From contig CAVOIW010000004.1 in NCBI GenBank assembly GCA_963695865.1, forward strand, positions 295,320 to 359,319: DNA of 64,000 bases, given 5' to 3'. The position numbers and the translations under genes are program-made. Below, in pieces: positions 2,270 through 61,939 of this stretch. The stretch comes from an uncultured Actinomycetota bacterium (GTDB taxonomy: Bacteria > Actinomycetota > Actinomycetes > Mycobacteriales > Nakamurellaceae). Under the pieces are notes generated by a model. The model was not told where the DNA came from, searched no databases, and worked only from the letters and a program-made list of their open reading frames with translations. The stretch's first letter is position 1. The number at the start of each line of letters is the position of its first letter.

Positions 2270-2969
2270 ATGCCTGCTCGCAAGAGAGCCCTGGTCGTCC
2301 GGGGTGGCTGGGACGGCCATCAACCCGTCGAGGCCACCGACCTCTTCGTTCCGCACCTGCGCAGGTCCGACTACGACGTCGACATCCACGACTCGCCGAA
2401 AATCTATGCCGATGCCGACTACATGGCCGGGGTCGACCTCGTGCATGCAGTGCATGACGATGTCCACCATCGAACCGGCGGAGTTCGTCGGGCTCCGGGC
2501 AGCCGTCGCCGCCGGGACGGGTCTGGCCGGCTGGCACGGCGGCATCGCGGACTCCTATCGCAACAGCTCGGACTATCTGCACCTGATCGGCGGCCAGTTC
2601 GCGTGCCACCCCGGCAAACACCCGGACGAGCGGGTGGGCGAGCAATCGGACAACTACGTGCCGTACACCATCAACATGCTTCCGTCCGCGGTGTCCCACC
2701 CGATCACGGCCGGCATCCACGACTTCCAGCTGACGACCGAGCAGTACTGGGTGCTCTGCGACTCCTACATCGACGTCCTGGCCACCACCACCCAGCCGGT
2801 TCGGCCGTGGGATCCGTGGACCAGACCGGTTGTCTCTCCGGCGATCTGGACCAGGCAGTGGGGCCGCGGCCGGATTTTCGTCACCACCGCCGGCCACAAT
2901 GTCGACGTGCTGCGAGACGCGAACGTCACCGCGATCATCGAGAGGGGCCTGCTGTGGGCGAGCCGCTGA
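2270..2969 (+). pseudogene. ThuA-domain protein (trehalose-utilisation-like), with one frame change near 2440
   Basis: Frame 2 from ATG 2270 reads MPARKRALVVRGGWDGHQPVEATDLFVPHLRRSDYDVDIHDSPKIYADADYMAGVDL. It continues in frame 0 (ORF 2073..2969) as QCMTMSTIEPAEFVGLRAAVAAGTGLAGWHGGIADSYRNSSDYLHLIGGQFACHPG...VTTAGHNVDVLRDANVTAIIERGLLWASR. The junction lies in gtgcatgcagtgcatgac and implies a +1 shift. This is either a pseudogene or an assembly indel. Confidence 0.7.
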
Positions 2970-4068
2970 GGCTTGGCATCGTAGGCCTCGGGCACATCAG
3001 CAAGCAGTACCTGCAGACACTGGACCGGCTCGACTCCGTCGAGCTGGTGGCCGTCGCCGACCTGAACCAGGATCTCGCCAACCGGATCGCCGGCGAGCGG
3101 GCCGGCGTTCGAGCCGTTGCAGCGTTGCGGAGCTGGTCGGCATCGCCGACGTCCAGATGGTCCTCAACCTGACCATCCCGGCGGCACACGCCGACATCGC
3201 CCTGCAGGCGATCGCCGCCGGAAAGAGCGTCTACGGCGAAAAGCCGCTCGCCCTCGACACGGCACAGGGGCGGGCAGTGCTCGGTGCCGCCGACGCCGCT
3301 GGTGTCGTTCTCGGGTGCGCTCCTGACACCGTGCTCGGTACGGGCATCCAGACGGCTCGAAAAGCCGTGGACGACAACCTGATCGGCGCGCCGATCGCGG
3401 CCACCGCCACCATGGTCGTCCCGGGACACGAACGATGGCATCCCAATCCCGACTTCTACTACCAGCCGGGCGGCGGACCGCTCCTGGACATGGGCCCGTA
3501 CTACCTGACGTCGCTGGTGACCCTGCTCGGTCCGGTCACCTCTGTGATGGCGGTGTCGAGCCGCACCCGATCGACCCGCACCATCGGCTCCGGCGCCCGC
3601 GCAGGGCGAGATCATCCCGGTCGACATCGATACCCACCTCACCGGGGTGCTCACCCATGCCACCGGTGTGCTGTCGACCCTGGTGATGAGTTTCGACGCC
3701 GTCGCGAGTCGATCGGCGAACATCGAGATCCACGGCGAACTGGGCAGTCTCGTCGTACCCGACCCGAACTATTTCGACGGCGAGGTGGAGATCAGGAGGC
3801 TGGGGGAGACCACCTGGTCCGCTCTTCCGGTGAGCGCCGGATACCTCGGTGCCGGCCGAGGTATCGGCATCGCCGATCTCGCCGCCACTCCGGCCGGGCA
3901 ACTACCGCGAGCCAGCGGAGCGCTCGCCTACCACGTGCTGGAGATCATGGAAGCGCTGCTGTCCTCCGCCGCAGAGCGGCACAACGGTGCCCGTGGCGAG
4001 TACGGCGGAACGGCCATCTCCCGGTTCCGCTGCAGACGATGGGAATGCAGCCGCCCACCCCAGGTTGA
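2954..4068 (+). pseudogene. Gfo/Idh/MocA family NAD(P)-dependent oxidoreductase, with several frame changes
   Basis: GTG at 2954 overlaps the ThuA stop and reads GEPLRLGIVGLGHISKQYLQTLDRLDSVELVAVADLN (Rossmann N-terminus). The protein is reconstituted from frame 2, then frame 1 (AELVGIADVQMVLNLTIPAAHADIALQAIAAGKSVYGEKPLALD...), then frame 2 (EIIPVDIDTHLTGVLTHATGVLSTLVMSFDAV...HVLEIMEALLSSAAER), and probably frames 0 and 1 at the C-terminus (ERPSP/VPLQTMGMQPPTPG, stop 4066-4068). Shifts are near 3107, 3615 (extra g in caggg), about 3985 and about 4017 (extra c in tctccc). Confidence 0.7.
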
Positions 4069-4135
4069 GCCGCGACGGCCGCCGGTATCGCATTCCGGCT
4101 GGCCCGGTGACATCGGCCATCGCCCACGGCAGGCT

Positions 4136-7248: not shown

Positions 7249-7619
7249 TCGGCCGCCGTTCACCGGCCTGCGCCGCGCTTGACCGGCTCGGCTGGACGAC
7301 GCGAAAAAAATCGTTGCGAACGGGCCGATCCGCGGTTACCTTCGAAATCGAACCCGGAAGGAGGTGGTCCCACGTTGAAGACGTACAGGACTTGTGAGGT
7401 GGCTGGCCGCTAGGCCGCCGTTCCATCACGTCGGACCGTGGTCCGTTCCCTACCGGGAACAGCGGTCAGGCAAGTAGTGGACAGTCACCCGACCCCCGGG
7501 CTGCCGACCATCGTCCAGTCGGCCCTCTGTCGCGACTCCAGCGTCAGGCGGAGGAACCGCCCGGGGGTTGTCCTGTCCCTGCTAGCTTTCTGCCCGTGAC
7601 GACCGCCGTTTTCCGTAGC

Positions 7620-9584: not shown

Positions 9585-11803
9585 ATGACCCTGTCAGTAG
9601 CGCGCCGAACAGCGCAACGCGATGCTGTACCACCGCGCACCACGTTGGTGGAGGTCGCGGCGGGATGGAGTCTCAAGCATCCGATCCTCGCCATCGCCGG
9701 GTGGGTCGCGCTGGTCGTGATGTGCGTGGTGGGCGGCAATCTGGCCGGCCTGAATTCGGCCGACGACGCCCAACTCGGTCCCGGTGAAGCCGGTCGGGCG
9801 GCGGCGATGATCCAGGCCGCGGGCCTGCAGGGCCACGACACCGAATCGGTGTTGATCACAGCGAGGAGCGGTCACCCGGATGCGAGCGGCCATGAAGGAC
9901 GCAGCCGCCGGCATCAGGCGGGAATTGGCCAGGCTCCCGATGGTCGCCGCAGTGGCCAAGCCGATGCCGTCTGGCGACCGGGTCGCGACGCTCGTCCAGG
10001 TGACCGTGGCCGAGGGCGTCGACGACGCGAAACCCCTGCTACAGGCGGTCTCCGACCTACGCACCCGGTACCCGGAGGTCGACGTGGCCCTGACCGGCGG
10101 GTTGACCATCGATGCCGATGTCAACGACCAACTCGGTCGGGACTTCGATTCCGCACTCATCCTCAGCCTGCCCATCACCATCCTGATCCTGCTGTTCGCC
10201 TTCGGCGCGCTGCTGGCGGCCGGGGTGCCGGTGCTGTTGGGTGTCGGCTCGGTGCTGGCCGCCGTCGGGCTGTACACCGTGGCCTCGCACGTCTTTCCCG
10301 ACGGCGGCTCGACGGCCGAGCTCATCCTGCTGATCGGCATGGCGGTCGGCGTCGACTACTCGTTGTTCTACCTCAAACGCGTGCGGGAGGAGCGACGGGC
10401 CGGCCGCTCTGAAGGCGACGCCCTGCGCGTGGCGACGGCCACCGCCGGCCATTCCGTCATGATCTCCGGATGCGCAGTGATGGTGGCGATGGCGGGACTG
10501 TTCCTGCTCCGGGACGTCAATTTCTCGGCGATGGCTGTCGGTGGGATCATCGTTGTCGCGCTTGCGGTGCTGAGCTCGGTGACGGTGTTGCCGGCCGTTC
10601 TGGCGCTACTTGGGGAGCGGGTGGACCGGCCCAGGATTCCGATCGTGTCCAGGTCGACCACGTCGGACCGGCCGGCCCGTGTGTGGCCGGTCCTGCTCCG
10701 GCCCGCGCTGCGTTTCCCCGCACTCACCCTGCTGATCGGTGTGGCCGGGATGTTGCTGCTCGCGTGGCCGGCGACCACCATGCACCTGAAGAATTCCACC
10801 GTCGCCGATCTGCCACCAACGTTGCCCAGTGTCGTTGCGATGCAACAGCTCACGGCGGCGTTCCCGGATCAGCGCAGCAGCCTGACGGTCGTCGCCCACG
10901 GGCGAGCCGAGTGCCGTGGCAGGCGTCGTCCGGCGCATCGAGGCCCAACTTCCCGGCCATCGCGACTTCGGCCCTGGTCCGATCTCGAAGACGGCCGCAA
11001 GCACCACCGAGCTGTCGGTGACGATCCCCTACGGCGAGGACAGCGACCAGGCGCGTGCAGCCTTGAACAGCATGCGTTCCACCGTGATACCGGCCGCAAT
11101 GGTGGGCGCCGCTGGAGTCGACGTCGCGGTCGGCGGCTCCCTGGCCGGGAACGTGGACTACGTTCACGAACTGTCCTCGGGCGCCTACCTTGTGGTCGGT
11201 TTCGTCGTGCTGATGACCTTCCTGCTGATGATGCTGACGTTCCGCTCTGTCGCTGTCGGCCTGGTCACCATCGCCGCGAACCTGCTGTCTGCCGGAGCCG
11301 CCTTCGGCGTGTTGGTGCTGGTCTTCCAGAGCCGTTGGGGTGCAGATCTTCTGGGCTTTCACCGCTCCGGTGGGATCATCGCATGGATCCCGGTCTTCGT
11401 CTTCGTCATCCTCTTCGGACTGTCGATGGACTACCACGTCCTGATGGTCTCGCGGATCAAGGAAGGAGTGGACAGCGGACTGTCTACCCGTGATGCCGTC
11501 CGGCAGGGTGTCACCGCATCCGCCCCGGTGATCACCAGCGCTGCGGCCGTCATGATCGGCGTGTTCGCGATCTTCGCCGGGTTGCACATGGTCGAGTTCA
11601 AGGAGCTCGGCATCGGCCTCGGAGCGGCGATCCTGCTGGACGCCGTGGTGGTGCGGATCCTCGTCCTGCCCGCCTTGATGGTGGTCCTGGGACGGTCGAA
11701 CTGGTGGGCCCCAGCGTTTCTCCGGCGCAGCGCCAGTGGGCCAGGGCTCCACGCCGACCCGTCCATCAAGGGCTCTGCGATGTCGGGCACAATGAGCGAA
11801 TGA
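9585..11803 (+). pseudogene. MMPL family RND-type transporter, with two frame changes
   Basis: ATG 9585 is preceded by gaaggag. Frame 0 reads MTLSVARRTAQRDAVPPRTTLVEVAAGWSLKHPILAIAGWVALVVMCVVGGNLAG...ITARSGHPD. Near 9880 it moves to frame 1: MRAAMKDAAAGIRRELARLPMVAAVAKP...LYTVASHVFPDGGSTAELILLIGMAVGVDYSLFYLKRVREERRAG... Near 10912 it moves to frame 2: AGVVRRIEAQLPGH...AGAAFGVLVLVFQSRWG...SMDYHVLMVSRIKEG... Stop is at 11801-11803. Both junctions are +1 shifts. Confidence 0.75.
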
Positions 11804-12403
11804 CGCGAGGATTCAGTGGTCGTCCACGTCGGCCGCGCAACGATCGTTTGCCTCCCGGTCAATACGACGTCGGCAAGGATTTCCCCGTGCTGACGGCCGA
11901 GGTCACGCCCAGGCTCGACCCCGAGAAGCTGTCCATCACCATCGACGGCCTCGTCGAGCGGGAGTCGACCTGGACCTGGAAAGAACTGCACGCTCTGCCC
12001 GGGTCCGTCTACAACGGTGACATCCACTGCGTGACAACATGGTCCAAGTTCGACACGAGCTTTGCCGGTGTCAGCGCCGACATTCTGCTCGCCGCCGCCT
12101 CGCCGCTGCCCGACGGCGACCCACGTGATGATCCGTTCGACCACCGGCTACACCACCAACCTTCCGCTGTCGGACATCACCGACGGAAAGGCGTGGGTGG
12201 TCTGGGATCACGAGGGCCACCCTCTTCCGATCGAGCACGGTGGGCCGATGCGATTCCTGGTGCCGCACCTGTATTTCTGGAAGAGCGCAAAGTGGGTCAG
12301 CAGGTTGACCTTGATGGATCACGACCAACAAGGCTTCTGGGAGCGCAACGGTTACCACGACCACGGTGACCCGTGGAAGGAAGAGCGCTATCAAGGTGAC
12401 TGA
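11800..12403 (+). pseudogene. Sulfite-oxidase-like molybdopterin-dependent oxidoreductase catalytic subunit, with one frame change
   Basis: ATG at 11800 overlaps the MMPL stop (ATGA). Frame 1 reads MTRGFSGRPRRPRNDRLPPGQYDVGKDFPVLTAEVTPRLDPEKLSITIDGLVERESTWTWKELHALPGSVYNGDIHCVTTWSKFDTSFAGVSADILLAAASPLP. From about 12110 frame 2 reads THVMIRSTTGYTTNLPLSDITDGKAWVVWDHEGHPLPIEHGGPMRFLVPHLYFWKSAKWVSRLTLMDHDQQGFWERNGYHDHGDPWKEERY. The junction is a +1 shift (extra g in ggcgaccc). Confidence 0.75.
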
Positions 12404-18394: not shown

Positions 18395-18542
18395 TGGACC
18401 CGACCGGCCGGTGGTGGACCGGCCGAGACGCCTCTATCAATACAGCCTGTGACGGACGGCCGTCGATGTCATCCGCCGGAAACACGACCTTGACACGAAT
18501 GCACTTGTCGCGAGGTCGTCTGGGTCGCCGATGATTCCTCCC

Positions 18543-19976
18543 ATGTCAACGTCTCTTGCAGAAGTAGCTGCCGACCGTCACTACGGCGCCAAGAGTCGCC
18601 GCGGTCGAGCCTGGTGGCGCCGAAGTCATCCCGCTGTCCGAGCGGCACGGGAAGCCCGTCCAGATGTTGTGGACCTGGATCGCCCCGAACATGGAGTTCG
18701 CGACCATCTTCGTCGGCGTGCTGGGCGCTGTTCTTCGGCCTGAGCTTCTGGCAGGTGTTCTGCGGCCATCGTGCTCGGGCAACGTGCTTGGGCAGCATCT
18801 CGCACGGCAGTGCTCTCCAGCTGGGGGCCCGAGCACCGGCTTCTGCCAGATGGTGCTGTCCCGTCGCGCCTTCGGCTTCCTCGGCAACTGGCTGCCGGCC
18901 GGACTGAACGCGCTGGTCGCCGGTATCGGCTGGTTCGCCGTCAACAGTGTCAGCGGCGGCTTGGCGCTGGCCGCCCTGACCGAGCATGAACAAGTACGTC
19001 TGCCTGGTCATCGTGGTGGCGATGATGTTGGTTCTGGCCTTCTTCGGGCACAATCTGATCCAGGTCTTCGAGCGGTACGCCGCTCCTGTTGCTGACGGTC
19101 ATCTTCGTGGTCGGCGGCATCATCATCTTCACCAAGGCGCATACCTCGGCGCCCGCCGCCGGAGCATTTCCCCGGTGCCTGGTGGGTTCTGCTCGGTGCC
19201 ACCTTCGGCTACGCCGCCGGATGGAATCCGTACGCCTCCGACTACACCCGCTATCTGCCGCCGGGCACCGGAGCGGCGGCCGGCATCTGGGCCGGTACTC
19301 GGCGTCCTGGTCTCCTGCATCCTGCTGGAAACCTTCGGCGCAGCAGCGTATCGTCGCGCTCGGCGGACAAGGCGGCCCTCGACCCCGGGCGTCCTACACC
19401 AGCGTGCTGCCGACCTGGCTCGGCAAAGCTGACCCTGCTCGGCATCTACCGTCGGCGCGATCGCGGCCAACGCGCTCAACGTCTACTCGAGCGCCATGTC
19501 TTTCAGCGCCATGGGTCTACGCTTCCGAGACCCCGTCGTTGCGGCGCCATCGCCGCGGTGGTGATGGGACTGCTCGGATTCATCGTCGCCGTGATCGGGA
19601 TCGATCACATCGACAAGTACGAGAACTTCTTGCTGGTCATCTCCTACTGGATCGGGCCATGGTTGGGGGTGGTGTTCGCCGACCGATTCCTGCGCCGGCC
19701 CGACCAGACGAGCTGGTCTACGGCGACCGCGACTACAAGAACTGGGCCGGCCCGATCGCCATGTTCGTCGCCGCGGTGATTTCCATCTGGCTGTTCTCTG
19801 CCCAGACCTTCTACAAGGGCGTCATCCCGAACCACGTTCCGCAGATCGGCGATCTGACCTTCGAGGTCGGCTTCGTGCTGGCCGTTCGGTCTCTGTACGT
19901 CGTCGCTGTACAAGTCTCTGGCTGGCCCGATCACGGTCGCTACCGCGAGCAGTTGGCCGCGGCGGAAAGGGCCTGA
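18543..19976 (+). pseudogene. NCS1 family purine/cytosine permease (CodB-like), heavily frame-disrupted
   Basis: Recognisable NCS1 segments are scattered over all three plus frames: MSTSLAEVAADRHYGA; VIPLSERHGKPVQMLWTWIAPNMEFATIFVGVLGAVL; FGLSFWQ; QMVLSRRAFGFLGNWLPAGLNALVAGIGWFAVNSVSGGLALAALTEH; NKYVCLVIVVAMMLVLAFFGHNLIQVFERYA; LTVIFVVGGIIIFTKAHTSAPAAG; VLGVLVSCILLETFGAAA; ...VVMGLLGFIVAVIGIDHIDKYENFLLVISYWIGPWLGVVFADRFLRRPD...ELVYGDRDYKNWAGPIAMFVAAVISIWLFSAQTFYKGVIPNHVPQIGDLTFEVGFVLA. At least about 10 frame switches in 1.4 kb, and no in-frame stops noticed. Confidence 0.7.
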
Positions 19977-20018: not shown

Positions 20019-20983
20019 ATGGGCAGCGTTCCCACCATCGATCTGACGCCGTGGTTCGAGGGTGGCGCAGGCCGGTCGGGCCGCGGTCGCCGACGAGGTC
20101 GACAAGGCACTGCAGTCGGTCGGGTTCTTCCTGATCACCGGTCACGGCGTCTCGAGAGCCGACCGCGCTGCGGTGCGGAAGGCGGCGCGTGAGTTCTTCG
20201 CCCTGCCGATCGCGGTGAAGCAGGCGTACGCCGTCACCGTCGGCGGACGGGGTTGGCTGCCACCCGGTGTGGAGGCCAACGGACTTGCCGAAGGTACCGA
20301 GACGCCTCCGGATCTCAAGGAGTCCTATTCGATCGGCGCGCAGGAGAAGACCGGCATCGAGGAGGTGGACGAGTTCTGGTTCGCCGACAACGTGTGGCCC
20401 GCCGAGGTTCCGGCGCTGGAGGCTGCGGCGACCGGCTATCTCGCTCAGATGCGTGAACTGGCGGAGACCCTGCTGAAAATCGCCGAGGTGGCTCTGCAGC
20501 AGAACGCCGGCTTCTTCACGGGCAAGACGACGCACTCCACGCACACCATGAACATCAATTGGTACCCGCCGGTCGGAATCGCGGGCGAACCCGAACCTGG
20601 CCAGTTCCGGATCGGGCCCGCACACCGACTTCGGCACCTTCACGATCCTGGACCGGGAACCAGGTAAGGGCGGCTTGCAGGTGTGGTCGCCCGACGGCGA
20701 CTGGGAGGACGCGCCCTACGATCCGGACGCGTTCACGATCAACACCGGTGATCTGCTGGCGCGGTGGAGCGGCGACCGCTGGAAGTCCAACCGGCATCGG
20801 GTGCTGCCACCCCAGGCCGAGGCGCCCGACGAGGATCTCGTGTCGCTGGTCTACTTCTACGAGGCGAACTGGGACGCCGTGGTGGAATCGGTTCCGCCGC
20901 CCGTCGGGAAACCGAACGACTATCCGCCGGTGATCGCGTCCGAATTCCTCAAGCGACTGCTGGACGCCATCACCGTCGGCTGA
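20019..20983 (+). pseudogene. 2-oxoglutarate/Fe(II)-dependent oxygenase (isopenicillin-N-synthase-like family), with two frame changes
   Basis: Frame 0 from ATG 20019 reads MGSVPTIDLTPWFEGG. From about 20062 frame 1 reads AQAGRAAVADEVDKALQSVGFFLITGHGV...FWFADNVWPAEVPALEAAATGYLAQMRELAETLL...HTMNINWYPPVGIAGEPEPGQFR. From about 20650 frame 2 reads GPHTDFGTFTILDREPGKGGLQVWSPDGDWEDAPYDPDAFTINTGDLLARWSGDRWKSNRHRVLPP... These are the HxD...H and RxS motifs of 2OG oxygenases. Both junctions are +1 shifts. Confidence 0.7.
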
Positions 20984-21004: not shown

Positions 21005-21506
21005 TCAGCCGACGGCGACGCCCATGTCCAGCAACGTCACCCTGAGCAGGAACCCGGCCTCGTCACCGACGATGCCGCTGACCAGCTCGACCATCCGTTC
21101 GGTGAACTCGGGCCCGTGCGCCACCTCGTCGGCGGTCGGTGCCAGGTGGTGGGCCAGCTCGTGCAGGACGACGAGTTCCCGCAGCGCCCACGCCGAACCG
21201 CCCTCGTGCAGCGGCACCGCGATCACACCGGGGAAGCGCTCGTAGTGGGCCTTGCTCTGGCCGGCGCGGCCGCGCAGGAAGACCGGGCGAGGCGGCCCGC
21301 GGCCAGCGTGCCCCGACCCAGCGCAGCGCCAGCACCGCGTCAACGTAGGCCTGGACGGATTCCAGTGAGGCGAACTTCCGCTCCATTGGGAGGGTGACGT
21401 GCGACCCGGCCACGTCGACGATGGGGAACTCGACGGACCGGTCGAAGATTCTGCGCACCAGTGCTTCCGCCTCGTAGACCTTCGAGCGTTGACGGTCGGC
21501 CGCCAT
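21005..21506 (-). pseudogene. HExxH zinc-metallohydrolase-like protein (SprT/DUF45-like), downstream partner of the DUF2786 gene, with one frame change
   Basis: ATG is the complement of 21504-21506, 2 bp after the DUF2786 stop. It reads MAADRQRSKVYEAEALVRRIFDRSVEFPIVDVAGSHVTLPMERKFASLESVQAYVDAVLALRWV. Near 21320 it shifts into the frame of ORF 21005..21343: PVFLRGRAGQSKAHYERFPGVIAVPLHEGGSAWALRELVVLHELAHHLAPTADEVAHGPEFTERMVELVSGIVGDEAGF (HELAHH zinc motif). Confidence 0.6.
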
Positions 21507-22492: not shown

Positions 22493-23994
22493 ATGGACCC
22501 GTTGGTGACCGTGGCCCAGGGGCAGCTGCGCGGCCGGGAGAAGGACGGCGTGAACTCATTCCTGGGCATCCCGTACGCCCAGCCTCCGTTCGGCGCGCTG
22601 CGGTTCGCCGCGCCGGTGCCCGCGAACGGGTGGGACGGAATCAGGGACGCGCTCGAATTCGGTGCCACCGCCCCCAAGCCGGGGTACCTGCCGCCGATCG
22701 ACGCGATCCTGCCCGAGGTGACCATCGAGGGCACGGACTGTCTGAACCTGAACGTCTGGTCCCCGCAGGACGCGACCGGACTACCGGTTCTGGTCTGGAT
22801 CCACGGTGGTTCCTTCGTGAACGGCAGCGGCGCCGTGTCGATGTACAACGGGGCCGCCTTCGCGCGGGACGGCGTGGTGTGCGTGACGATCAACTATCGT
22901 CTTGGCGTCGACGGATTCGGATACATCGACGGCACGCCACCGAACCGCGGTCTGCTCGATCAGATAGCGGCTCTGGAGTGGGTGCGGGACAACATCGCTG
23001 CCTTCGGCGGCGACCCGACGAAGGTCACGGTGGCCGGGGAGTCGGCAGGCGCGTTCAGCGTGGCGAGCCTGCTGGCCATGCCCGCTGCGACGGGCCTGTT
23101 CGGCAGGGCGATTCTGCAGAGCGGAGCCGGCCAGCACGTGCTCACGCCGACGGCCGCGGCGAAGGTGACGGCCGAGGTCGCCGCGCGGCTCGGCGTGGAG
23201 CCGATTGCCGAGGCGCTCGCCGCCGTACCCGTCGACGATCTGATTCGAGCGCAGCAGGCCGTCGCGATCGAGATCGCTGCCGCGGCCGGTCATGAGCGGT
23301 GGGCGGAGATCACTCCCAACATGATGGCCTTCGAACCGGTGGTCGACGGCGACATCCTCCCCGGCCGTCCGATCGATGCCATGGCCAACGGGAGTTCCAG
23401 CCAGGTCGATCTACTGGTCGGCACCACCACGGAGGAGCACGCCCTGTTCCTCGTCCCGACCGGCATCGCGGCCGGCATCGGAGCTACCCAGCTCCGCGCG
23501 GCGCTCTCGTCGTACGGAGTCGATGTCGACAGGCTCATCGCGACCTATCAAGCGGATCGGCCTGGCGCGACGCCAGGGCGAGATCCTGATCGCCGCCCTG
23601 ACCGACTGGTTCTTCCGTATACCCGCCGTCCGGGTCGCCGAGGCCCGCGGTGCCCTCGGAGTGGACACCCACGTCTACGAGTTCGCCTGGCGCAGCCCGC
23701 AATTCGGCGGACAGCTCGGCGCCTGCCATGCGCTGGAGATCGGCTTCGTCTTCGACAATCTCGGCGATCGTCGACGGTCTGGGCCCGGCGCAGGCCGGTG
23801 CTCTGACCGGTCCGACTCCACCGCAGTCGTTGGCGGACGAGATGCACAGGGCCTGGGTGTCGTTCGTCCGGGACGGCAACCCCGGGTGGCCGCCCTACGG
23901 CACGGCCCGCACCGTGATGCGTTTCGACGAGGTCAGCGCCGAGGTGGACGATCCGCGGCCGGCCGAACGCGAACTGTGGGCCGGTGTGCGATAG
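22493..23994 (+). pseudogene. Type-B carboxylesterase / lipase family protein, with two frame changes near 23570 and 23765
   Basis: Frame 2 from ATG 22493 reads MDPLVTVAQGQLRGREKDGVNSFLGIPYAQPPFGALRFAAPVP...CLNLNVWSP...VWIHGGSFVNGSG...VTVAGESAGAFS (GESAG nucleophile elbow). Frame 0 continues EILIAALTDWFFRIPAVRVAEARGALGVDTHVYEFAWRSPQFGGQLGACHALEIGFVFDNLGD. Frame 1 continues VDGLGPAQAGALTGPTPPQSLADEMHRAWVSFVRDGNPGWPPYGTARTVMRFDEVSAEVDDPRPAERELWAGVR, stop 23992-23994. Both junctions are +1 shifts. Confidence 0.75.
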
Positions 23995-26223: not shown

Positions 26224-27029
26224 GTGGATCTGAACACGGTCACGACGTACCGCCGCGCTTCCGTTCGTTCCGACCTGGCGCTTGCCCCGGGTGAGCGACT
26301 GCTGGGCGGCGGCACCTGGTTGTTCTCGGAACCACAGGTGGAGACCAGCGGGCTCGTCGACCTGACGACCATGGGCTGGCCGGCGATCGAGTATCCCGAC
26401 GACGGGCTCCGCATCGGCGCCACCTGCACCATCGCCGAGTTGGCCGACCTGCGGGAGCGGGCAGGCTGGCGTGCGCATCCGCTGTTCTTCCAATGTGCAA
26501 CTGCGCTGTTGGCCTCGTTCAAGGTCTGGCAGGTGGCCACCGTCGGCGGCAACGTGTGCCAGTCCTTCGCCGCGGCCGGGATGGTGTCACTGTGTGCCGG
26601 CCCTGGATGGCGTCGCCCTGGTGTGGCGGCCGGACGGCGGCGACTACCGCATCGCGGTCGCCGACTTGATCACCGGAAACGGCACCAATCGACTCGCCGC
26701 CGGGGAAACGCTGCGGTCCATCGACATTCCCGGGTATGCCCTTCGCGCCAGAACGGGCTTCCGCAAGATCGCGTTGGCCGCATTGGGTAGGTCCGGCGCA
26801 GTGCTGACCGGACGGGTGGACGAGGACGGAAGCGCCGTCTTCTCCATCACCGCGGCGACCCTTGCGCCCGGTCGTGCTGCGCTACCCGTCCCTGCCGGAC
26901 GAGCTGACATTGCGGGTCGATGTCGGTGACGCACCTGGCTATTACACGGACCCGCTCGGCTCGGCAGATTGGCGCCGTCAGGTCAGCGGCGTTCTGCTCG
27001 AAGAGATCCGTCGGGAAATCGCCGTATGA
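26224..27029 (+). pseudogene. Xanthine-dehydrogenase-family FAD-binding subunit (CoxM/XdhB-like), with two frame changes
   Basis: GTG 26224 after gaggagga. Frame 1 reads VDLNTVTTYRRASVRSDLALAPGERLLGGGTWLFSEPQVETSGLVDLTTMGWPAIEYPDDGLRIGATCTIAELADL...VATVGGNVCQSFAAAGMVSLCA. From about 26590 (extra g in ccggccc) frame 2 reads ALDGVALVWRPDGGDYRIAVADLITGNGTNRLAAGETLRSIDIPGYALRARTGFRKIAL...FSITAATLAP. From about 26868 (extra g in cccggtc) frame 0 reads VVLRYPSLPDELTLRVDVGDAPGYYTDPLGSADWRRQVSGVLLEEIRREIAV, stop 27027-27029. Confidence 0.75.
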
Positions 27030-29786: not shown

Positions 29787-29817
29787 CGACCGGTCCCCGA
29801 CCGCAGAGCTGATCCGA

Positions 29818-38679: not shown

Positions 38680-40030
38680 ATGACGGGATCTGTGTCACGC
38701 CGCCGTTTCCTCGCCGCCGGTGGTGGTCTGACCCTGGCCGGCCTATTGGCCGGCTGTGGCGGTCCCATTACCAGTGGCGTGACGGGTGCCCCGCCGAACA
38801 CCGCCGACGTGATTTATCTGGCACCTGTTCGGCGGTGGTGACGGCGCGAACATGAAGACCATGGTGAATGCGGTCCAGAAGTCCACCGGTCATTCGGTCG
38901 AGGCCACACTGCTTTCCTGGGGCAATCCCTATTACACAAAGCTGGCCCTGGCCGCCTCGAGCCAGCGACCCCCGGATGTGGGGATTTCCCACCTGTCCCG
39001 ACTCTCGCTGCTGGCCCAGGCCGGCCTGCTGGAGCCCATCCAGGATGTCGGCGCAACGGAGGCCGGAATCACCTCGGACAAATTCACTCCGGCGGCCTGG
39101 TCGAAGGCCACCGTGGAGGGCAAGGTATATGCGGTTCCGCTGGACACCCATCCGTTCGTCATGTACTACAACGCCGACCTGGCCAAGAAGGCCGGCCTGC
39201 TGAACGCCGCCGGTACCGACCTCAAGCCGCTCAATGGTCGGCAGGATTTCATCAACGCCCTCAAAGCCATGAAATCGGCCGGCGCCAAATTCGGCGCCGT
39301 CTCCTCCAACACCGCCGATCCGGCGACCAACTGGCGCCTTTTCATGACGTACTATTCCGGGCTGGCCGGGCCCATCGTCGAGGACCGGGGCACCCGGGTC
39401 ACCCTCGACCCGGCCGCGTGCGAAGAGACTTTCGCTTTCATGCAGAGCATGACCGGATCGCTCGGCCTGATGCCGCCGAGCGCTACGAGTACCACGGCGG
39501 GCACCTTGTTCGGTGGAGGTCAGTCCGGCTTCCTGTTCGACGGTGTCTGGCAGCTGCCGACCTATACCGGAACCACGCTACCCAACGGCAAGCCGCTGGA
39601 GTTCAACATCGTTCCGTTCCCGGCCATTCTCGGCACGCAAGCCTTATCGCCTACGCCGATTCGCATTCGCTTGGTCATCCCGGTCAGCCCGGGCCGGTCG
39701 GCCCAGCGGACAGCCGACGCCGTTGAATTCATCAAGGGGCTTCTGAACAACAGTCTCACCTGGTCCGGTGGCGGCCACGTTCCGGCATGGCTGCCGGTGC
39801 AGCGGAGCAAGGCATTCCTGCGCGAAAAGCCGCAGAGCAATTACATCCAGGCTGCGTTCAACGCCGTCTACGATCCACCCGCCTGGTACACCGGTGCAGG
39901 TTCGGATTTCCAGAATCAAATCGGATCCGTCATCAGCAGTGTGCAGGCCGGACAGATCACCCCGAAGGCGGGCGTGAGTGCCATGATCGCGAACCTGCAA
40001 ACCTTCTCCAAGACGCGGCCCCCCGTCTAG
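38680..40030 (+). pseudogene. Sugar ABC-transporter substrate-binding lipoprotein (Tat-type signal, lipobox LAGC), with one frame change near 38818
   Basis: Frame 1 from ATG 38680 reads MTGSVSRRRFLAAGGGLTLAGLLAGCGGPITSGVTGAPPNTADVIYL. After a +1 shift (extra c in tatctggcac) frame 2 reads WHLFGGGDGANMKTMVNAVQKSTGHSVEATLLSWGNPYYTKLALAASSQRPPDVGISHLSRL...KVYAVPLDTHPFVMYYN..., a CUT1-type SBP. Stop is 40028-40030. Confidence 0.75.
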
Positions 40031-42897: not shown

Positions 42898-42964
42898 CCG
42901 CAGGCCGTCGCACCGGGGCCGGCGGCCCCTTTCACCGGCGTCGACCTACTCAGGCGAGGAGTAT

Positions 42965-52510: not shown

Positions 52511-53610
52511 ATGTGGTCGGCGATCAGCGGCGCCTTCAGCCGGGTTCTCCGTCGGCCGATCGTCCGGCACGGCATCAAGTCCTTCGAGCGGTTCAGCGCC
52601 CGGCTGGGCTGGCAGTTCGCCGGAGCGCTCACCTACTTCTCCTTGCTGGCGCTCGTCCCCATCCTGATGGTCGCCTTCTCCGTCGCCGGGTTCGTGCTCG
52701 CGTCCCGTCCGGCGACGCCTCCAGGCGTTGGAGGACTCCATCGTTTCCCTGCTGCCCACCTCGTCAGACATGGCCGATGAGGTCAACACGGTGCTCAACA
52801 GCGCGATCGACGCCCGTCTGACCGTCGGCCTTCTCGGACTGGGCATTGCGCTCTACACGGGTATCAGCTGGATGGGCAATCTGCGGAGTGCGATCCAGGC
52901 GATGTGGCGCCCGGACTTCGACTCGGAGCAGGAGATCGCCGCCGAGCCGCTGTGGCGGTACTACCTGAAGAATCTCGGCTACCTGGCGACTCTGGGAGTG
53001 GGTGTGGCTCTATCCCTCGGACTGACCACCATTGGCACCAACGCCCAGGCCACCGTGTTGGACTGGCTGGGACTGAGCGATGCGAGCTGGGTGGCGCCGC
53101 TGGTCACGGCCGGGCCCATCGTGCTGGCGACCATTGCCGACACAGCGCTGTTCATGGCGCATCTACTGGTTCATCCCGCCGAAGGCATACCGACCCCGCC
53201 GGAAACCGCTGGTCCGGGGGGCCGTCACGGCGGCGGTGGGATTCGAGCTGCTCAAGTTCGGGCTCACCTATCTGCTGCCACAGCTGCTGACGTCGCCCAC
53301 CGCAAAGATCTTCGGTCCGATCATCGGGCTGCTGATCTTCTTCAACGCCACGGCGACCGTGGTGCTGTTCGTGGCCGCCTGGATCGCCACGGCGGCGGGG
53401 AGCCGGTCCGCCGAGCACCCGCGGCCCTACGTCCGCTCACCGCACGGGGCGCGTATCCACCGTCGTGCCGCTGCCAACAGGGTGCTGCTGTCGGCCAGCA
53501 GTCTCGAGGAGCTCGACCGGGTCGCCGAAGCACACGGCACCAGCAGGGATCAGCTGATCCGGACGGCGGTCGCCAGATATCTGGCAGCACCGGACGATCC
53601 AACATCCTGA
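52511..53610 (+). pseudogene. YihY/BrkB (virulence-factor BrkB / RNase-BN-like) family membrane protein, with two frame changes
   Basis: Frame 2 from ATG 52511 reads MWSAISGAFSRVLRRPIVRHGIKSFERFSARLGWQFAGALTYFSLLALVPILMVAFSVAGFVLASRP. From about 52718 (extra c in acgcctcc) frame 0 reads LQALEDSIVSLLPTSSDMADEVNTVLNSAIDARLTVGLLGLGIALYTGISWMGNLRSAIQAMWRPDFDSEQ...ADTALFMA. From about 53163 (extra c in gcgcatc) frame 1 reads IYWFIPPKAYRPRRKPLVRGAVTAAVGFELLKFGLTYLLPQLLTSPTAKIFGPIIGLLIFFNATATVVLFVAAWIA..., stop 53608-53610. Confidence 0.75.
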
Positions 53611-55184: not shown

Positions 55185-56169
55185 ATGGAGCAACGCACAC
55201 TCGGCCGCACCGGCCGCAAGATATCGGTCATCGGATTGGGCACCTGGCAGCTCGGTGCCGACTGGGGTGATGTCGACGAGAACGACGCCCTTGCCGTGCT
55301 GAGCGCCGCCGTCGCCGAGGGAGTCAATTTCTTCGACACCGCGGATGTCTACGGCGACGGTCGCAGCGAGCAGTTGATCGGCCGGTACCTGCGGGAGAAT
55401 CCGGGTGAAGACATCTTCGTCGCCACCAAGATGGGCCGGCGGATGGACCAGCTTCCGGAGAACTACGTGCTCGAGAACTTCCGCACGTGGACGGACCGCT
55501 CGCGGACGAACCTGGGAGTGGACCGACTGGATCTGGTGCAGTTGCATTGCCCGCCGACCCCGGTCTTCTCCTCCGATGCCGTCTACGACGCGCTTGACAC
55601 GCTGGTCGCCGAGGACCGGATCGCCAACTACGGGGTGAGCGTCGAAACCTGCGACGAGGCGTTGGCCGCCATCGCCCGCCCCGGCACGGCGAGCGTGCAG
55701 ATCATCCTCAATGCCTTCCGGCTCAAGCCCTTGGAGCAGGTGCTGCCGGCCGCGGTCGAGGCTGGGGTCGGCATCATCGCCCGGGTGCCGTTGGCCTCCG
55801 GGTTGCTCTCCGGCCGGTACACGACCAGTTCGACCTTCGCGGCCGACGATCACCGGAATTACAACCGTCACGGTGAGGCGTTCGACGTCGGCGAGACCTT
55901 CTCCGGTGTCGACTTCGCGGTCGGTGTGCAGGCGGCGCAGGAATTCGCCGCCCTGATGCCGCCCGGCGTCTCACCGGCGCAGGGTGCCCTGCGGTGGATC
56001 ATCCAGCAGGACGGCGTCACTTCGGCGATTCCCGGCGCCCGGAATCAGCGAGCAGGCCGCCAAGAACGCCTCCGCCGCGGCGATTCCGGCGCTTCCGGAC
56101 GAGACGCTGCAACAGATCTCGGATCTGTACGACGCCAAGATCCGGCCACAGGTCCACGACCGCTGGTAG
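55185..56169 (+). pseudogene. Aldo/keto reductase family oxidoreductase, with one frame change near 56040
   Basis: Frame 0 reads MEQRTLGRTGRKISVIGLGTWQLGADWGDVDENDALAVLSAAVAEGVNFFDTADVYGDGRSEQLIGRYL...LVQLHCP... through ...VTSAIPGARN. After a +1 shift frame 1 reads EQAAKNASAAAIPALPDETLQQISDLYDAKIRPQVHDRW, stop 56167-56169. Confidence 0.8.
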
Positions 56170-56205: not shown

Positions 56206-56640
56206 ATGGACGACCCATTCGACCTCGAGCGTTTCGTGGTCGCGCAGGACGCAGGCGGCGCCATCGAGAGGGCACTCGACGAGCTTCGCCACGGCCGGAA
56301 GGCGAGCCACTGGATGTGGTTCGTCTTCCCGCAGATCGCCGGCCTTGGGTCCAGCGAGATGGCGCAGCGGTATGCGATCTCGTCCCTGGACGAGGCGAGA
56401 TCGTATCTGGAGCACCCCGTGCTGCGGCCGCGGTTGCTCGGAGGCGGCCGAGATCGTGGCCCAGACCCAGGGTTCCACCGCCGAACGGATCTTCGGATCC
56501 GTCGACGCACAGAAATTGCGGTCCTGCATGACGCTGTTCCTGCGCGCGGCGCCGGTGGAGCCAGTCTTCAGCAAGGTGCTGGGCCTGTTCTTCGACGGCG
56601 TTCCGGATCGGAAGACGGACGAGTTGCTGGACATCACCTG
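56206..56640 (+). pseudogene. DUF1810 domain protein, with one frame change near 56440
   Basis: ATG 56206 after ggggaggg. Frame 1 reads MDDPFDLERFVVAQDAGGAIERALDELRHGRKASHWMWFVFPQIAGLGSSEMAQRYAISSLDEARSYLEHPVLRPRLL. After a +1 shift (extra g in ctcggaggc) frame 2 reads EAAEIVAQTQGSTAERIFGSVDAQKLRSCMTLFLRAAPVEPVFSKVLGLFFDGVPDRKTDELLDIT, stop 56638-56640. Confidence 0.75.
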
Positions 56641-56661: not shown

Positions 56662-57610
56662 TCAGCCCTTGATCGCGCCGCCGAGACCGGAGCCGCGCAG
56701 AAACGAGCGCTGGAAGACGATGAAACCGGCGATGGGAACGATGGTCGCGATCAGCAGCGCCGCCAGGAACGTGCCCAGGTCGGTCTGCGGTTCGATCGCC
56801 GGCAGTCGCACCGACAAGGGCTGCTCGTCTGGGTTGGTCAGCACCAGCAGCGGCCAGAGGAAATCCTTCCAACTCGCCAGCACCGCGAACACCGAGACGA
56901 CGCCCGAGAATGGGCTTGGACATCGGCAGCACGATGGAGAAGAACAAGCGGAACGCCCCGGCTCCGTCCACCCGCGCCGCCTCGAATATCTCGCGCGGCA
57001 GATTGTCGAAGAACCGTTTCACAATCACGACGTTGAACGCGCTGGCCCCGGCGGGCAGCCAGATGGCCCAGTAACTGTCGATGAACGAAGTGTGTAGCAG
57101 CGGAGGATGGACGATCTCGATGTAGAGCGGGACCAGCAGCACCACCGGCGGGATGAAAAGGGTGGCCAACACCAGTCCGGTGATGACATTGGCATATCTG
57201 GGTCGCAACACAGACAATGCGAATCCGGCGGTGGTCGCCACCAGGAGTTGAGACAGCCAGGCGCCCAAGGCGAGCACGACGGTGTTCCAGAAATAGACGC
57301 CGATCTTCACGTTGAACCACGCGTCGTACAGATTGTGCCAATCGGTGCCATGAGGAAATAGCGCCATCGGTTGTTGGAGTGTGTCGATGGTCGGCGTGAT
57401 GGCCGACTTCGCCAACCACAGCATGGGTCCGAGACCAGCCACTATCAGAAGCGCCAGCAGCATCATCTGCGTTCCGCCGATGCCGAAGCGAACGCTCGGT
57501 CGCTGCCAGTCGGTCGACGAGATGACCGCCTGTTCGGTCGCTTCGTTCCTGCGGCGCTTGACCTTCGGGCCGGCCGCCATCGGCTCGGCCACCACAATCG
57601 ATTCTGTCAC
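56662..57610 (-). pseudogene. Sugar ABC-transporter permease (MalG-like), with one frame change near 56895
   Basis: Minus-strand ORF 56045..57610 carries MTESIVVAEPMAAGPKVKRRR...LLIVAGLGPMLWLAKSAITPT...EAARVDGAGAFRLFFSIVLPMSKPILG. It then continues in the frame of ORF 56662..56892: FAVLASWKDFLWPLLVLTNPDEQPLSVRLPAIEP...VFQRSFLRGSGLGGAIKG. Confidence 0.75.
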
Positions 57611-58579
57611 GAGGTGCTCCAGGAACGAGTGACGCGGAGATAGATCATCGACATCAGGCCGAGGAAGACGGCCAACATCAGACTCAGAGCGGTCGCGCTG
57701 CCGTAGTCGCCGCCGAGGCTGTTGCCGAATGCGTAGTTGTAGATCATGAGCAGGATCGTCATGGTGGAGTTGCTGGGCCCGCCCGCGGTGAACAGGTAGG
57801 GCTCCAGGAAAACCTGTGCCGTGCCGATGATCTGCAGGATCATCGTCAGCAACAACACACCCCGCAGCTGCGGCATGGTGATGTGCCAGATCTTGTTCCA
57901 GATCGTTGCGCCGTCGACACCGGCGGCCTCGTACAGTTCGCGATTAACGCCGGTGATCGCCGCGAGGTAGATGATCACCGTTGCGCCGGCGTTGGCCCAT
58001 GTCGATTCGAGCACGAGGGATGGCATGGCGGTGGATCGGGGACTGCAGCCATGGGTACGGGCCGAGATGCACCCATCCCAGGATGGTGTTGAAGACGCCC
58101 GTCGGGCTGGGGTCGTAGAAGGTCTTCCACAGCAGCACGGCCACCACCGGCGGAATCACCACTGGGAGATAGGCCAGAACACTGAAAACCCCGCGGTAGC
58201 GCCGCACCTCGCTCATCAGCACGGCGGCGACGAGCGGAATCGGGTAGCCGAAGATCAGCGCCAGCAGCGCAAAGTACGCCGTGTTTCTGATGGCGATCGG
58301 CAACAGCGGATCATCCAGCACATTGCTGAAGTTCTGCCATCCCACCCAGGTCGCCGGCCGCACCAGGTTGGTGTGCTGGAACGACATGGTGACGGTGCGG
58401 ACGATCGGGTACCAGGAGAAGGCACCGAAGGTGAAGAGCATCGGCAACAGGAAGACGACCGTCGTCAGGCCGCCGCCTTTGACCCAGCTGGCCGGAGTGC
58501 GCCGCGGGCGTGAAGTCGCCTGGCGCCCTGTCGTCATCGTTTCGTTGGACACTGTCGACGCGGCAGCCGGGGAGTCCAT
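57607..58579 (-). pseudogene. Sugar ABC-transporter permease (MalF-like), with one frame change near 58020
   Basis: ORF 57944..58621 carries MDSPAAASTVSNETMTTGRQ...LTTVVFLLPMLFTFGAFSWYPIVRTVTMSFQHTNLVRPATWVGWQNFSNVLDDPLL...VFNTILGWV. It continues in the frame of ORF 57607..58026: PSLVLESTWANAGATVIIYLAAITGVNRELYEAAGVDGATIWNKIWHITMPQLRGVLLLTMILQIIGTAQVF... The exact start is uncertain (58579 or 58537). Confidence 0.7.
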
Positions 58580-60153: not shown

Positions 60154-60286
60154 CGACTTCTCCTTTTTCGGGGTCGCTCACGGCGCCGGTGCCGTGAGCA
60201 GGCCATCACTGCGAGTGGGGGTGAATCGTGCCGGTTGGGTCAACCGGCACCTGGATTTACAGGCGACGCGGTGGATCTGGTGTCGG

Positions 60287-61939
60287 TCAGCCGGTGGTGG
60301 GCATGCGGAGCCAGACGGCGGTGTCGGTTGGCAACTGACCTCCTTCGATCTCTTCGCTGGCGAGCACGATCTCGGAACGGTCGGGCAGGGGGCACGCATC
60401 GGCGCCGAAATTGACGAGGCAGACGATCTCATCGCCTCGCTTGAAGGCGAGAACCGCTGGTGCTGCTTGGCATCCACTGAAAAGTCGGGCCGGCGAACGC
60501 CGGGCTGGATCGCCGAATGCGCAGGCCCTCGCGATAGAGGGCGAGCGTCGACGAGCGATCCTCGCGATTGCGCCCCCACGGTCAGGCCTCCCCATCCCGG
60601 TGGTTGGTCGAGCCACGGGCGCCTCGTGGCGCCCGGCGGGCTGAACCCGTAGGGCGGTTCGTCGCCGGACCAGGGGAGCGGTACCCGGCAGCCGTCGCGT
60701 CCAGGGTTCAGTCGGCCAGATCTGAAATACATCGGGATCCTGCCGCCGCTCGTCAGGAATGTCCTCGACCTCGGGCAACCCGAGTTCCTCGCCCTGGTAG
60801 ATGTACATCGAACCGGGCAGCGCCATGGTCAGCAGCGCCGCGGCCCTGGCCCTGCGCGTACCGAGTGCCAGGTCTGTCGGCGTGCCGGCGCGGCGGGTGT
60901 CGAACGAGAACGAGGTATCCGTGCGGCCGTACCGGGTGACCGGCCGGGTGACGTCATGGTTGGACAACACCCACGTGGCCGGGGCCGAGACCAGTTGGTG
61001 CGTCGAGAGAGTCTGGTCGATGCAGGCACGGAGCGCCGTCGGGTCCCACGGACATCCGAGGTACGGAAAGTTGAACACGGTGTGCAGTTCGTCCGCGCGC
61101 AGGTAGCGGGCAAGGCGCTGGGCGTCGGGCAGCCACACCTCACCGATCAGCACCCGCGGCTCCGCATAGGAGTCGGCAACGTCTCGCCATTGGCGGTACA
61201 CCTCGTGCAGCGAATCGCGATCGGTGAAGGGATGCTCGGCACCCGACGCGAGCAGATCCTCCTCGGCCAGGGCGGGGTCCTTGACGAGCAGCGCCGCCGA
61301 GTCGATCCGGAAACCGGCCACTCCGCGGTCGAACCAGAACCGCAGCACTGCTTCGTGTTCGGCCCAGACGTCCGGGTGTGTCCAGTTGAGATCGGGCTGT
61401 TCCGAGGCGAACAGGTGCAGGTACCACTCGCCCGGCGAGCCGTCCTCATCCTTCGTCCTCGTCCAGGCCGGTCCACCGAATATCGACTGCCAGCCGTTCG
61501 GCGGAAGTTCGCCGCTGTCACCGGTGCCGGGCCGGAACCAGAACCGGGCCCGTTCCAGCGAATCGGGTGCCGCGGCCAGAGCCGCGCGGAACCATGCGTG
61601 CTCTTCTGAGACGTGGTTCGGGACGATGTCGACGATGGTCCGGATTCCGACCGCACGTGCTTGCGTGATCAGCGTCTCGGCGTCGCGCAGAGTGCCGAAC
61701 GACGGGTCGATCGAGCGGTAATCGCTGACGTCGTAACCGCTGTCGGCCATCGGCGACGGATACCAGGGGTTGAACCACAGGGCATCGACGCCGAGCGCAG
61801 AGAGGTACTCGAGCTTGGCCCGCACTCCGGCCAGGTCGCCGGTGCCATCACCGTCCGTGTCGTAGAAGCTGCGGACGTACACCTGATAGACCACTGCACT
61901 GCGCCACCACGGGTCGCCGTCACTTCGCACAGCCGCCTC
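60287..61939 (-). pseudogene. GH13 alpha-glucosidase / oligo-1,6-glucosidase family, with three or more frame changes in the C-terminal third (about 60470-60760)
   Basis: Main frame reads ...DPWWRSAVVYQVYVRSFYDTDGDGTGDLAGVRAKLEYLSALGVDALWFNPWYPSPMADSGYDVSDY...IVDIVPNHVS...GFRIDSAALL...GEVWLPD...YIYQGEELGLPE... (GH13 regions I-IV). C-terminal pieces lie in other frames: GRDGCRVPLPWSGDEPPYGFSPPGATRRPWLDQPPGWGGLTVGAQ, then DRSSTLALYREGLRIRRSSPAFAGP, then back to ...AVLAFKRGDEIVCLVNFGADACPLPDRSEIVLASEEIEGGQLPTDTAVWLRM, stop 60287. Probable start is GTG near 61937-61939. Confidence 0.75.

Follow-up and report, generated by a model that had tools for sequence, protein, structure and literature searches.

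Disrupted genes or disrupted sequence

In the 64-kb stretch of DNA analysed here as a whole (the window), many coding sequences continue from one reading frame into another, which raises the question of whether these genes are broken in the organism or only in the deposited sequence. The window belongs to a 485,662-bp contig of an uncultured Nakamurella-like actinobacterium, most probably from a long-read metagenome. It was aligned, using a purpose-written frameshift-aware dynamic-programming aligner, to intact orthologues called on five related contigs and also to homologues from databases, and the coding path was followed with a codon-usage Viterbi model trained on the intact genes of the window. 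Two other procedures were dropped: a fixed-parameter GC3 hidden Markov model, which labelled too much of the window non-coding, and tblastn with all sister ORFs, which was swamped by the off-frame ORFs typical of high-GC DNA.

The frameshift-aware alignments resolved about 52 frame-changing events, which fall in 19 genes out of about 57. The frame changes noted in a preliminary description of the window are real in the sequence, and each gene that it named, including a flotillin listed as probable, is shifted where it had placed the shift; its count of about 35 was too low, and the share of genes affected is about one third instead of roughly half. Its observation that nearly all events are insertions holds over the whole window, i.e., 50 insertion events (46 single-base and 4 two-base) against 2 one-base deletions (p = 6e-13), a ratio of 25 to 1 in which the longest indel seen was 2 bases. 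As also described, in-frame stop codons were absent from every corrected alignment of the broken genes, and the window events included neither nonsense mutations nor larger indels. Taking out the extra bases gave, in 18 genes, full-length proteins of orthologue size with every codon present and zero codon gaps at the junctions; the ThuA gene is the one of the 19 that is backed by Pfam and not by an orthologue alignment.

The strong clustering noted earlier was reproduced: event counts per 2-kb bin have a variance/mean ratio of 8.0 (p = 1e-35), and of 1.7 (p = 0.006) once the block in the NCS1 permease gene is removed. When traced along the codon-usage Viterbi path, the blocks span both strands and several operons. 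One takes in the NCS1 and 2OG oxygenase genes on the forward strand and the HExxH gene on the reverse strand; another takes in the AKR and DUF1810 genes on the forward strand and two ABC permease genes on the reverse strand. Core genes such as pgi are unbroken within the window.

Complete genes are recovered from adjacent frames

The ThuA gene (2288..2952, forward strand) has one +1 change within 2440-2456, where frame 2 passes into frame 3. Both frames were read directly, a close reference protein being lacking (the fetched related loci returned spurious low-identity matches only); the repaired protein gives one continuous match to Pfam ThuA (positions 2-206/209) through the junction, and the Viterbi path agrees. 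The Gfo/Idh/MocA oxidoreductase gene (2954..4044, forward) has two extra bases at about 3117 and one each at about 3595-3604, 3971 and 4020. Alignment to three homologues of 362-369 aa (P0263, P0264 and P0266; 75% identity) covered 362/362 codons with zero codon gaps and zero stops, and the Pfam domains continue through the junctions. Extra bases at 9883-9885 and 10900-10903 carry the MMPL transporter gene (9585..11797, forward) through tblastn frames 3, 1 and 2, and 737 codons align with no gaps to the intact 738-aa orthologue on the related contig L081. The sulfite-oxidase-like molybdoenzyme gene (11800..12400, forward) has an extra C in CCC at 12109-12111, seen in the DNA alignment as ctgCccgac against ctg-ccgac; with this one base skipped, 200 codons align to L081 at 98% amino acid identity. 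The N-terminus of a sensor kinase (9431-9560) also shows indels relative to L081 and L085, which could not be polarised and were left out of the count.

In the purine-utilisation genes, the XDH FAD-binding subunit (26224..27023, forward) carries one extra base at 26597-26600 and a second at 26859-26864; it was aligned to L084, and Pfam FAD_binding_5 continues through the junction. The preliminary description had listed three XDH subunits with two events each. This is right for the FAD subunit, but the Fe-S and molybdopterin parts form one fused XDH-family gene (27039..29765, forward) with three events, at 27471-27477, 27942-27943 and 29525-29528. With these 3 bases skipped, 907 codons align at 81% identity to the orthologue on L084 (XDH928), and the gene product is about 928 aa in all relatives; 120 XDH homologues of about 920-940 aa have the Fer2, Fer2_2, hammerhead and MoCoBD domains in a single chain. 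The guanine deaminase (amidohydrolase) gene (29817..31104, forward) has an extra base at 29840-29842, eight codons in, and aligns to GuaD of L084 over 429/429 codons. On the reverse strand, the flotillin/Band 7 gene (31481..32621) has one base too many at 31556-31563, close to the C-terminal end (at aa 353 of 380), and aligns to its L084 counterpart over 380/380 codons at 92% identity.

The sugar ABC solute-binding protein (SBP) gene (38680..40027, forward) has an extra base at 38817-38818, followed by a compensated pair (+2 at 39645, +1 at 39669-39674) that leaves about 8 codons out of frame in an ORF that remains open; the region 38.9-52.7 kb, previously taken to be clean, contains this pair. 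Alignment to the L083 protein SBP448 covers 448/448 codons at 88% identity. The YihY/BrkB membrane protein gene (52511..53607, forward), with extra bases at 52717-52719 and 53158, runs through tblastn frames 2, 3 and 1 and aligns over 365 codons to YihY of L082. The same contig served for the aldo/keto reductase (AKR) gene (55185..56166, forward; extra base at 56045-56049), whose junction is bridged by Pfam Aldo_ket_red (2-290/291), and for the DUF1810 gene (56206..56638, forward; extra base at 56439-56441), where 144/144 codons align and Pfam DUF1810 (2-136/136) bridges the junction. Both ABC permease genes lie on the reverse strand and were aligned to an intact paralogue within the window: permease 2 (56668..57550) has an extra base at 56903-56908, a Pfam BPD_transp_1 match (3-174/184) through the junction and a DNA alignment to L082, and permease 1 (57610..58558) has an extra base at 58035-58036, which the DNA alignment to L082 resolves as an extra A at 58035. 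The GH13 alpha-glucosidase gene (60266..61963, reverse), aligned to P0383, P0385 and P0387, gains one base at each of three sites, about 60732-60736, 60555-60565 and 60467-60471. Their net shift of +3 keeps a 582-aa ORF open in which some 90 codons lie in the wrong frame, and the Viterbi path drops its coding signal at 60453-60746.

The densest block lies in the NCS1 permease gene

The NCS1 purine/cytosine permease gene (18531..19970, forward) holds 16 single and 2 double insertions and 2 one-base deletions (19700 and 19946), i.e., 20 events in 1.4 kb by frameshift-aware alignment, where about 10 had been estimated before. Relative to NCS1 of L081, the 20 frame corrections yield 471 codons at 89% identity with zero stops, and the Pfam Transp_cyt_pur match (2-440/440) bridges all junctions. 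The dN/dS of this gene is 0.117, its divergence being dominated by third positions as usual. The block starts beside a breakpoint at 18395/18433, where the window is without two genes, for an abhydrolase and a DUF1275 protein, found in L081, L084 and L086.

Further genes of this region are less heavily affected. The 2OG-Fe(II) oxygenase gene (20019..20980, forward) has an extra base at 20064-20068 and at 20614-20620 (GGGCCC), and aligns over 320/320 codons to L081 and L084. The gene for a 166-aa HExxH protein (21008..21506, reverse), with an extra base at 21283-21288, was aligned in the same way to L081 (93% identity) and L084. The carboxylesterase gene (22493..23991, forward) has one base too many at 23575-23579 (GGG) and another at about 23763; all 493/493 codons of the L084 COesterase are covered, and Pfam COesterase (2-486/515) spans both junctions.

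The extra bases are mostly outside homopolymers

The preliminary description had linked the insertions to G/C runs and the assembly to a homopolymer-prone process. Outside NCS1 there is a weak excess, with 10/26 scattered events compatible with a run of at least 3 bases against 17-21% for simulated random insertions. In the NCS1 block, 2/16 events are compatible with such a run, and all of A, C, G and T occur as inserted bases, at sites that are not repetitive. The homopolymer detail is only partly right. Four of the five junction strings given earlier coincide with events or lie no more than about 10 bases away, i.e., CAGGGCGAG (at 3602 and 23574), TCTCCCGGTT (4017), CACGGGAGC (29522) and CCGGGTGG (27952); the fifth, GATTTTCGA, is absent from the window. 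Junction contexts are heterogeneous, and neither a conserved slippery motif nor a long A/T tract was found at the junctions.

Relatives are intact and a sister assembly breaks other genes

To compare the broken genes with their neighbours, dN/dS was calculated; it ranged over 0.02-0.24 for the broken set and 0.05-0.20 for the intact one, with differences at the three codon positions of broken genes remaining at about 0.1, 0.05 and 0.35. In the relatives compared, the orthologues read in one frame and the shift sites of the window are absent. The NCS1, 2OG and HExxH genes had zero frameshifts in all four independent relatives (L081, L084, L087 and L089, from three data sources), and all 18 called genes of the syntenic contig L084 are intact. 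The relatives differ by 5-20% in sequence, and what they reveal is the normal, intact state of these genes, not their state in this strain.

A same-strain sequence was not found in the searched collections, where members of the protein clusters were 89-97% identical. The closest sequence, L085 (94.6% nucleotide identity), covers only 4.2-9.7 kb, a region free of confirmed events. A JGI scan returned relatives at only 79-85% nucleotide identity, and a contig search anchored on pgi returned 80 loci with almost no synteny and a best match of 78% amino acid identity. Sister contigs with Flye-style names in ERZ25039594 have breaks of their own, again biased to insertions (8 single and 2 double, with 1 deletion). 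The genes hit there, namely DinB, MFS, LigD, a 499-aa protein and an SBP, are unbroken in the window. Both assemblies break the AKR gene, though not at the same sites.

The breaks are very probably consensus errors

On these sequence comparisons, the extra bases are very probably residual consensus insertion errors of a long-read metagenome assembly and not real pseudogene mutations. The insertion bias, the absence of nonsense codons, the normal selection, the intact relatives and the sister breaks elsewhere all favour this reading, which the preliminary description had also preferred. The consensus step would have kept one extra base, rarely two, at about 50 sites, and each kept base would shift the frame by +1, so that gene callers break up or shorten the gene; where the shifts add to +3, as in GH13 and the SBP, the error would be concealed in an open ORF. 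The blocks would represent local drops in consensus quality, the worst of them, with its 20 events in 1.4 kb, beginning beside the breakpoint of a strain-variable deletion. We infer the sequencing platform, and that the drops likely reflect a mixture of strains or a small number of reads in support.

Indels in long-read consensus sequences break up gene calls, and polishing is needed for bins with coverage below 40x (PMC9262707); the effect of such indels worsens at low coverage (PMC8103633). With this IDEEL-type problem of Nanopore and PacBio genomes and MAGs (PMC9262707, PMC8103633, PMC12007338), the window has in common single-base breaks that vanish against orthologues, truncated or split proteins that reach databases, and a flaw that would worsen where support is poor and that polishing or frameshift-aware tools can mend. 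The usual cases are homopolymer indels, whereas the window has almost only insertions, mostly outside homopolymers, and an extreme local density. The textbook nanopore error profile, i.e., homopolymer deletions, is likewise unlike the insertion-dominated profile of the window.

A possible, though distinctly less probable, source of the artefact is the collapse of co-occurring strains, in which reads were misaligned around SNPs and the polisher kept both alleles as an insertion, low coverage not being the cause. Nearby allelic variants are reported to cause wrong read alignments and to bring indel errors into collapsed assemblies (PMC8445201). In the case described there, Trypanosoma brucei Tb427, apparent frameshifts in well-conserved genes clustered at close variants and were removed by phasing or correction; Tb427 is a diploid eukaryote with read evidence, whereas strain mixing in the window is only suspected, from the neighbouring structural variant. 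The densest block adjoins that strain-variable deletion, a relative of about 95% identity exists in a sample that, by its accession number and contig naming, may belong to the sample series of the sister assembly, and many NCS1 events resemble two alternative third-position bases side by side. However, the codon slots of the insertions match random expectation (about one third between positions 1 and 2, two thirds beside position 3), and sites next to mismatches with the sister sequence are not enriched (3/11 against about 26% expected). Strain collapse therefore has no positive signal beyond context, and "allele-doubling", i.e., both SNP alleles kept side by side, was rejected as unsupported.

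It is very unlikely that the insertions are real, which would require a very recent +1-biased mutation burst (for example, in a lineage lacking MutS/MutL-type repair or using an error-prone polymerase) to have just knocked out a third of the genes here while substitutions had yet to accumulate. The extra bases are present in the deposited sequence, slippage is plausible for the scattered events in GGG/CCC, where the excess over the simulated null is seen, core genes such as pgi are spared, and the related assembly likewise has many +1 breaks. Against this, the NCS1 gene retains its low dN/dS and lacks stops, and it does not fit neutral decay, because its 20 indels come without an excess of non-synonymous change. 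Spontaneous bacterial indels are biased towards deletions, whereas here insertions exceed deletions 25 to 1 and no indel is longer than 2 bases. All four bases are inserted at non-repeat sites in the dense block, the sister assembly breaks other genes, including DinB and LigD, and the NCS1, 2OG and HExxH genes are intact in four relatives. The blocks disregard operon and strand limits, which together with the NCS1 gene also speaks against the recent pseudogenisation by operon that had been entertained before. Genuine mass pseudogenisation is known from the reductive evolution of Mycobacterium leprae, which shares with the window many disrupted actinobacterial genes and the sparing of essential ones; decay of that type brings a mixture of nonsense mutations, deletions and frameshifts, goes with an elevated dN/dS and is common to strains, none of which was seen in the window. 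Slightly less credible still is a genuine, very recent and strongly +1-biased insertional mutator episode that arose independently in the Nakamurella-like lineage and its sister lineage and would have knocked out a third of the genes here ahead of any other decay. Recoding of a correct sequence, by programmed +1 ribosomal frameshifting or transcriptional slippage, has as its sole support the well-preserved downstream frames and is negligible in probability, given junctions that lack a conserved slippery motif or long A/T tract and shift sites found in none of the relatives compared; we know of no bacterial precedent for twenty shifts in one gene.

Consequences for the public record

Under the reading as consensus errors, the frame breaks almost certainly concern data quality and not biology: the organism itself almost certainly has intact genes, and the breaks are therefore without biological meaning. 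In the public record, roughly one in three genes of this 64-kb stretch is split or truncated, and fragments have already reached protein databases, such as the 588-aa piece of the fused XDH gene (P0085) in the protein set of the source assembly. Used unpolished, this MAG would bias pseudogene counts, completeness estimates, evolutionary inference and pathway calls (purine utilisation, sugar uptake), for which polishing or frameshift-aware correction of the contig is the remedy. Length-based checks would miss two of the genes, GH13 and the SBP, whose out-of-frame stretches are concealed in open ORFs.

Reference contigs and the host of the window

The window, with a GC content of 66–69% throughout, appears from its sequence matches to belong to a Nakamurella-like actinobacterium, with Nakamurella species as the nearest named relatives. 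A cluster at 90% or higher identity joins the response regulator to Nakamurella sp. UYEF19, Nakamurella sp. PAMC28650 and N. panacisegetis, and Nakamurella is also the best named match for Gfo/Idh/MocA and XDH. The genome collection yielded no species-level representative, with Pgi at most 78–79% identical to that of any representative, and no same-strain sequence was found among the collections searched. The intact proteins of the window are included in a public protein collection, as products of one 485,662-bp contig. Reference contigs were obtained through exact-sequence and homology look-ups: the sister contigs L081 and L082 (ENA assembly ERZ25039594; 83–89% nucleotide identity to the window), L083 and L084 (ERZ26273096; names of the form ‘ctgN_11x_l’), L085 (ERZ25039606; 94.6% identity, covering 4.2–9.7 kb only), and the JGI contigs L086, L087 and L089. 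L084 is syntenic with the window over ~17–35 kb, and all 18 of its called genes are full length. The Flye-style ‘contig_N’ names of the sister contigs follow a scheme also used by large Flye-plus-Medaka soil MAG projects (PMC12313526).

Frame changes in the window are almost exclusively insertions

A Viterbi path based on codon usage, with the intact genes of the window as its training set, gave many switches of frame within the same strand and without stop codons. tblastn with called sister genes showed single proteins hitting successive frames (MMPL 3→1→2, YihY 2→3→1, 2OG oxygenase 3→1→2, Mo-enzyme 1→2). Events were then placed gene by gene with a custom frameshift-aware protein-to-DNA aligner, with database homologues as references for Gfo/Idh/MocA and GH13 because neither has a syntenic reference. 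The purine/cytosine permease gene NCS1 (18531–19970, + strand) carries 20 events and Gfo/Idh/MocA four; three each were placed in the fused Fe-S/Mo XDH protein, the SBP and GH13, two each in MMPL, the 2OG oxygenase, the carboxylesterase, the XDH FAD subunit and YihY, and one each in ThuA, the Mo-enzyme, the HExxH protein, guanine deaminase, flotillin, AKR, DUF1810 and two ABC permeases. The event in ThuA, for which Pfam is the support, is the sole one without a close reference protein, and its junction (2440–2456) lies within the imperfect tandem GTGCATGCAGTGCATG. In the path-repaired proteins, Pfam domains run continuously over the junctions, and NCS1 matches Transp_cyt_pur 2–440 of 440 in one stretch.

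For almost all events the reference codons were complete and one base was skipped, which makes them insertions rather than two-base deletions. Insertions made up 50 of the events (46 single, 4 double) and one-base deletions 2 (binomial p = 6e-13), with no in-frame stop codon in the corrected alignments and no indel longer than 2 bases. Thus the preliminary description was borne out for the genes it named as frame-shifted, for the predominance of +1 changes and for the lack of premature stops and larger deletions. Its figure of ~35 events was an undercount, about 52 having been located, while its estimate that roughly half of the genes are affected was too high (19 of ~57).

It had also counted the Fe-S and Mo parts of XDH as two subunits. 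Instead, the XDH-family region at 27039–29765 is one fused gene, joining Fer2, Fer2_2, the hammerhead domain and MoCoBD_1/2; L084 and each of the 120 best homologues have it as a single protein of ~920–940 aa. Database protein P0085, from the source's own gene calls, is a 588-aa fragment of this ~925-aa gene. Two sets of shifts compensate and leave the ORF open, so that they would escape checks of ORF length: three +1 shifts in GH13 (60287–62035, – strand; ~90 codons mistranslated) and a +2 followed by a +1 in the SBP (39645–39674, + strand; ~8 codons). Compared with L081 and L085, the window has 1–3 additional bases at 9431–9560 (– strand), in the N-terminal and upstream part of the sensor kinase; assignable to neither sequence, they possibly mark a further error site. 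The sensor kinase of L085 is itself split, reading AA where the window reads AAA at 9034.

Sequence context and clustering of the insertions

Insertions were localized by trying all single-base deletions near each junction, with simulated random insertions as the null. Outside NCS1, 10 of 26 events fit a run of at least 3 bases, mostly GGG or CCC, against a random expectation of 17–21%; inside NCS1, 2 of 16 did. The earlier placing of the insertions in G/C runs thus holds for the smaller part of the scattered events and fails for the dense block, where all four bases occur among the insertions (e.g., ccaagaGtcgcc, cggTactc and gtaTcgtc). This insertion-dominated, mostly non-homopolymer profile differs from the classical nanopore pattern. 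When the NCS1 region was aligned to L081 at the DNA level, ~25 extra single bases fell in the window sequence and ~5 in that of the sister.

The clustering reported previously was recovered, with a variance/mean of 8.0 for 2-kb bins; with the NCS1 block removed it was 1.7 (p = 0.006). The event-free 13-kb stretch has p ~0.02. The NCS1 block, the densest, begins 140 bases past a junction at 18395/18433. In L081, L084 and L086 this place, between the amino-acid permease and NCS1, is occupied by an abhydrolase and a DUF1275 gene (~1.76 kb), neither of which the window has. At strain-variable sites of this sort, read support is likely to be thin or mixed. Collapse of nearby allelic variants is reported to yield indel errors and apparent frameshifts (PMC8445201), and the insertions might represent both alleles kept side by side at strain SNPs. 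This we consider the less likely reading, as neither test lent it support: insertion sites are not enriched beside mismatches to the sister, and their distribution over codon slots is that predicted for random placement (~1/3 between positions 1 and 2, ~2/3 adjoining position 3). Low local depth would explain the clustering more simply.

The frame changes very probably arose during assembly

We conclude with high confidence that the frame changes are residual consensus errors of the assembly, as first described. After frame correction, Nei–Gojobori dN/dS was 0.02–0.24 for broken genes, in the same range as intact neighbours measured against those same references (0.05–0.20); NCS1, despite 20 indels, gave 0.117, with third codon positions dominating the divergence. 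Drift long enough for 20 indels should also have left many unconstrained substitutions and stop codons. Indels in bacteria are deletion-biased, and a spectrum of 50 insertions and 2 deletions, none above 2 bases and without nonsense codons, is unlike natural mutation.

Comparison of the same genes in relatives points the same way, as NCS1, 2OG and HExxH need no frame correction in L081, L084, L087 and L089. The sister assembly has breaks of its own: L082 carries ten insertions, 8 of them single and 2 double, along with 1 deletion, in DinB, MFS, LigD, a 499-aa protein and an SBP, all intact in the window, and DUF2252 of L081 runs past its stop following an extra base and is called as 660 aa. 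AKR is broken in the window and in the sister assembly, at different sites. Breaks of one kind that do not overlap between two related genomes point to assembly as their origin. No frame correction was needed in L083 and L084, which belong to another assembly, wherever tested, and their genes are called full length. The event blocks span both strands and functionally unrelated genes, and a very recent, real +1 mutator episode is highly improbable.

Consensus indels in long-read assemblies are known to fragment gene calls, with metagenome bins below ~40x coverage requiring polishing (PMC9262707), and their effect on gene calls is greater at low coverage (PMC8103633). The frame changes carry practical weight for annotation of the record and little biological interest.

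Other features of the window

A 9.3-kb sugar-utilization island at 35540–44810 (LacI, GH2, ABC transporter, PhyH and a 620-aa secreted protein) parts MFS from TauE. These two genes are neighbours in L082 and L084, and L083 has the island beside IS110 and rve transposase genes. A Pyr_redox_2/Reductase_C ferredoxin-reductase gene (23991–25372, – strand), between the carboxylesterase and SDR, is missing from the syntenic L084. Between the DUF5709 and response-regulator genes, intergenic sequence at 7350–7576 (+ strand) matches the Rfam actinobacterial sRNA Ms_IGR-5 (71.6 bits against a gathering score of 45).
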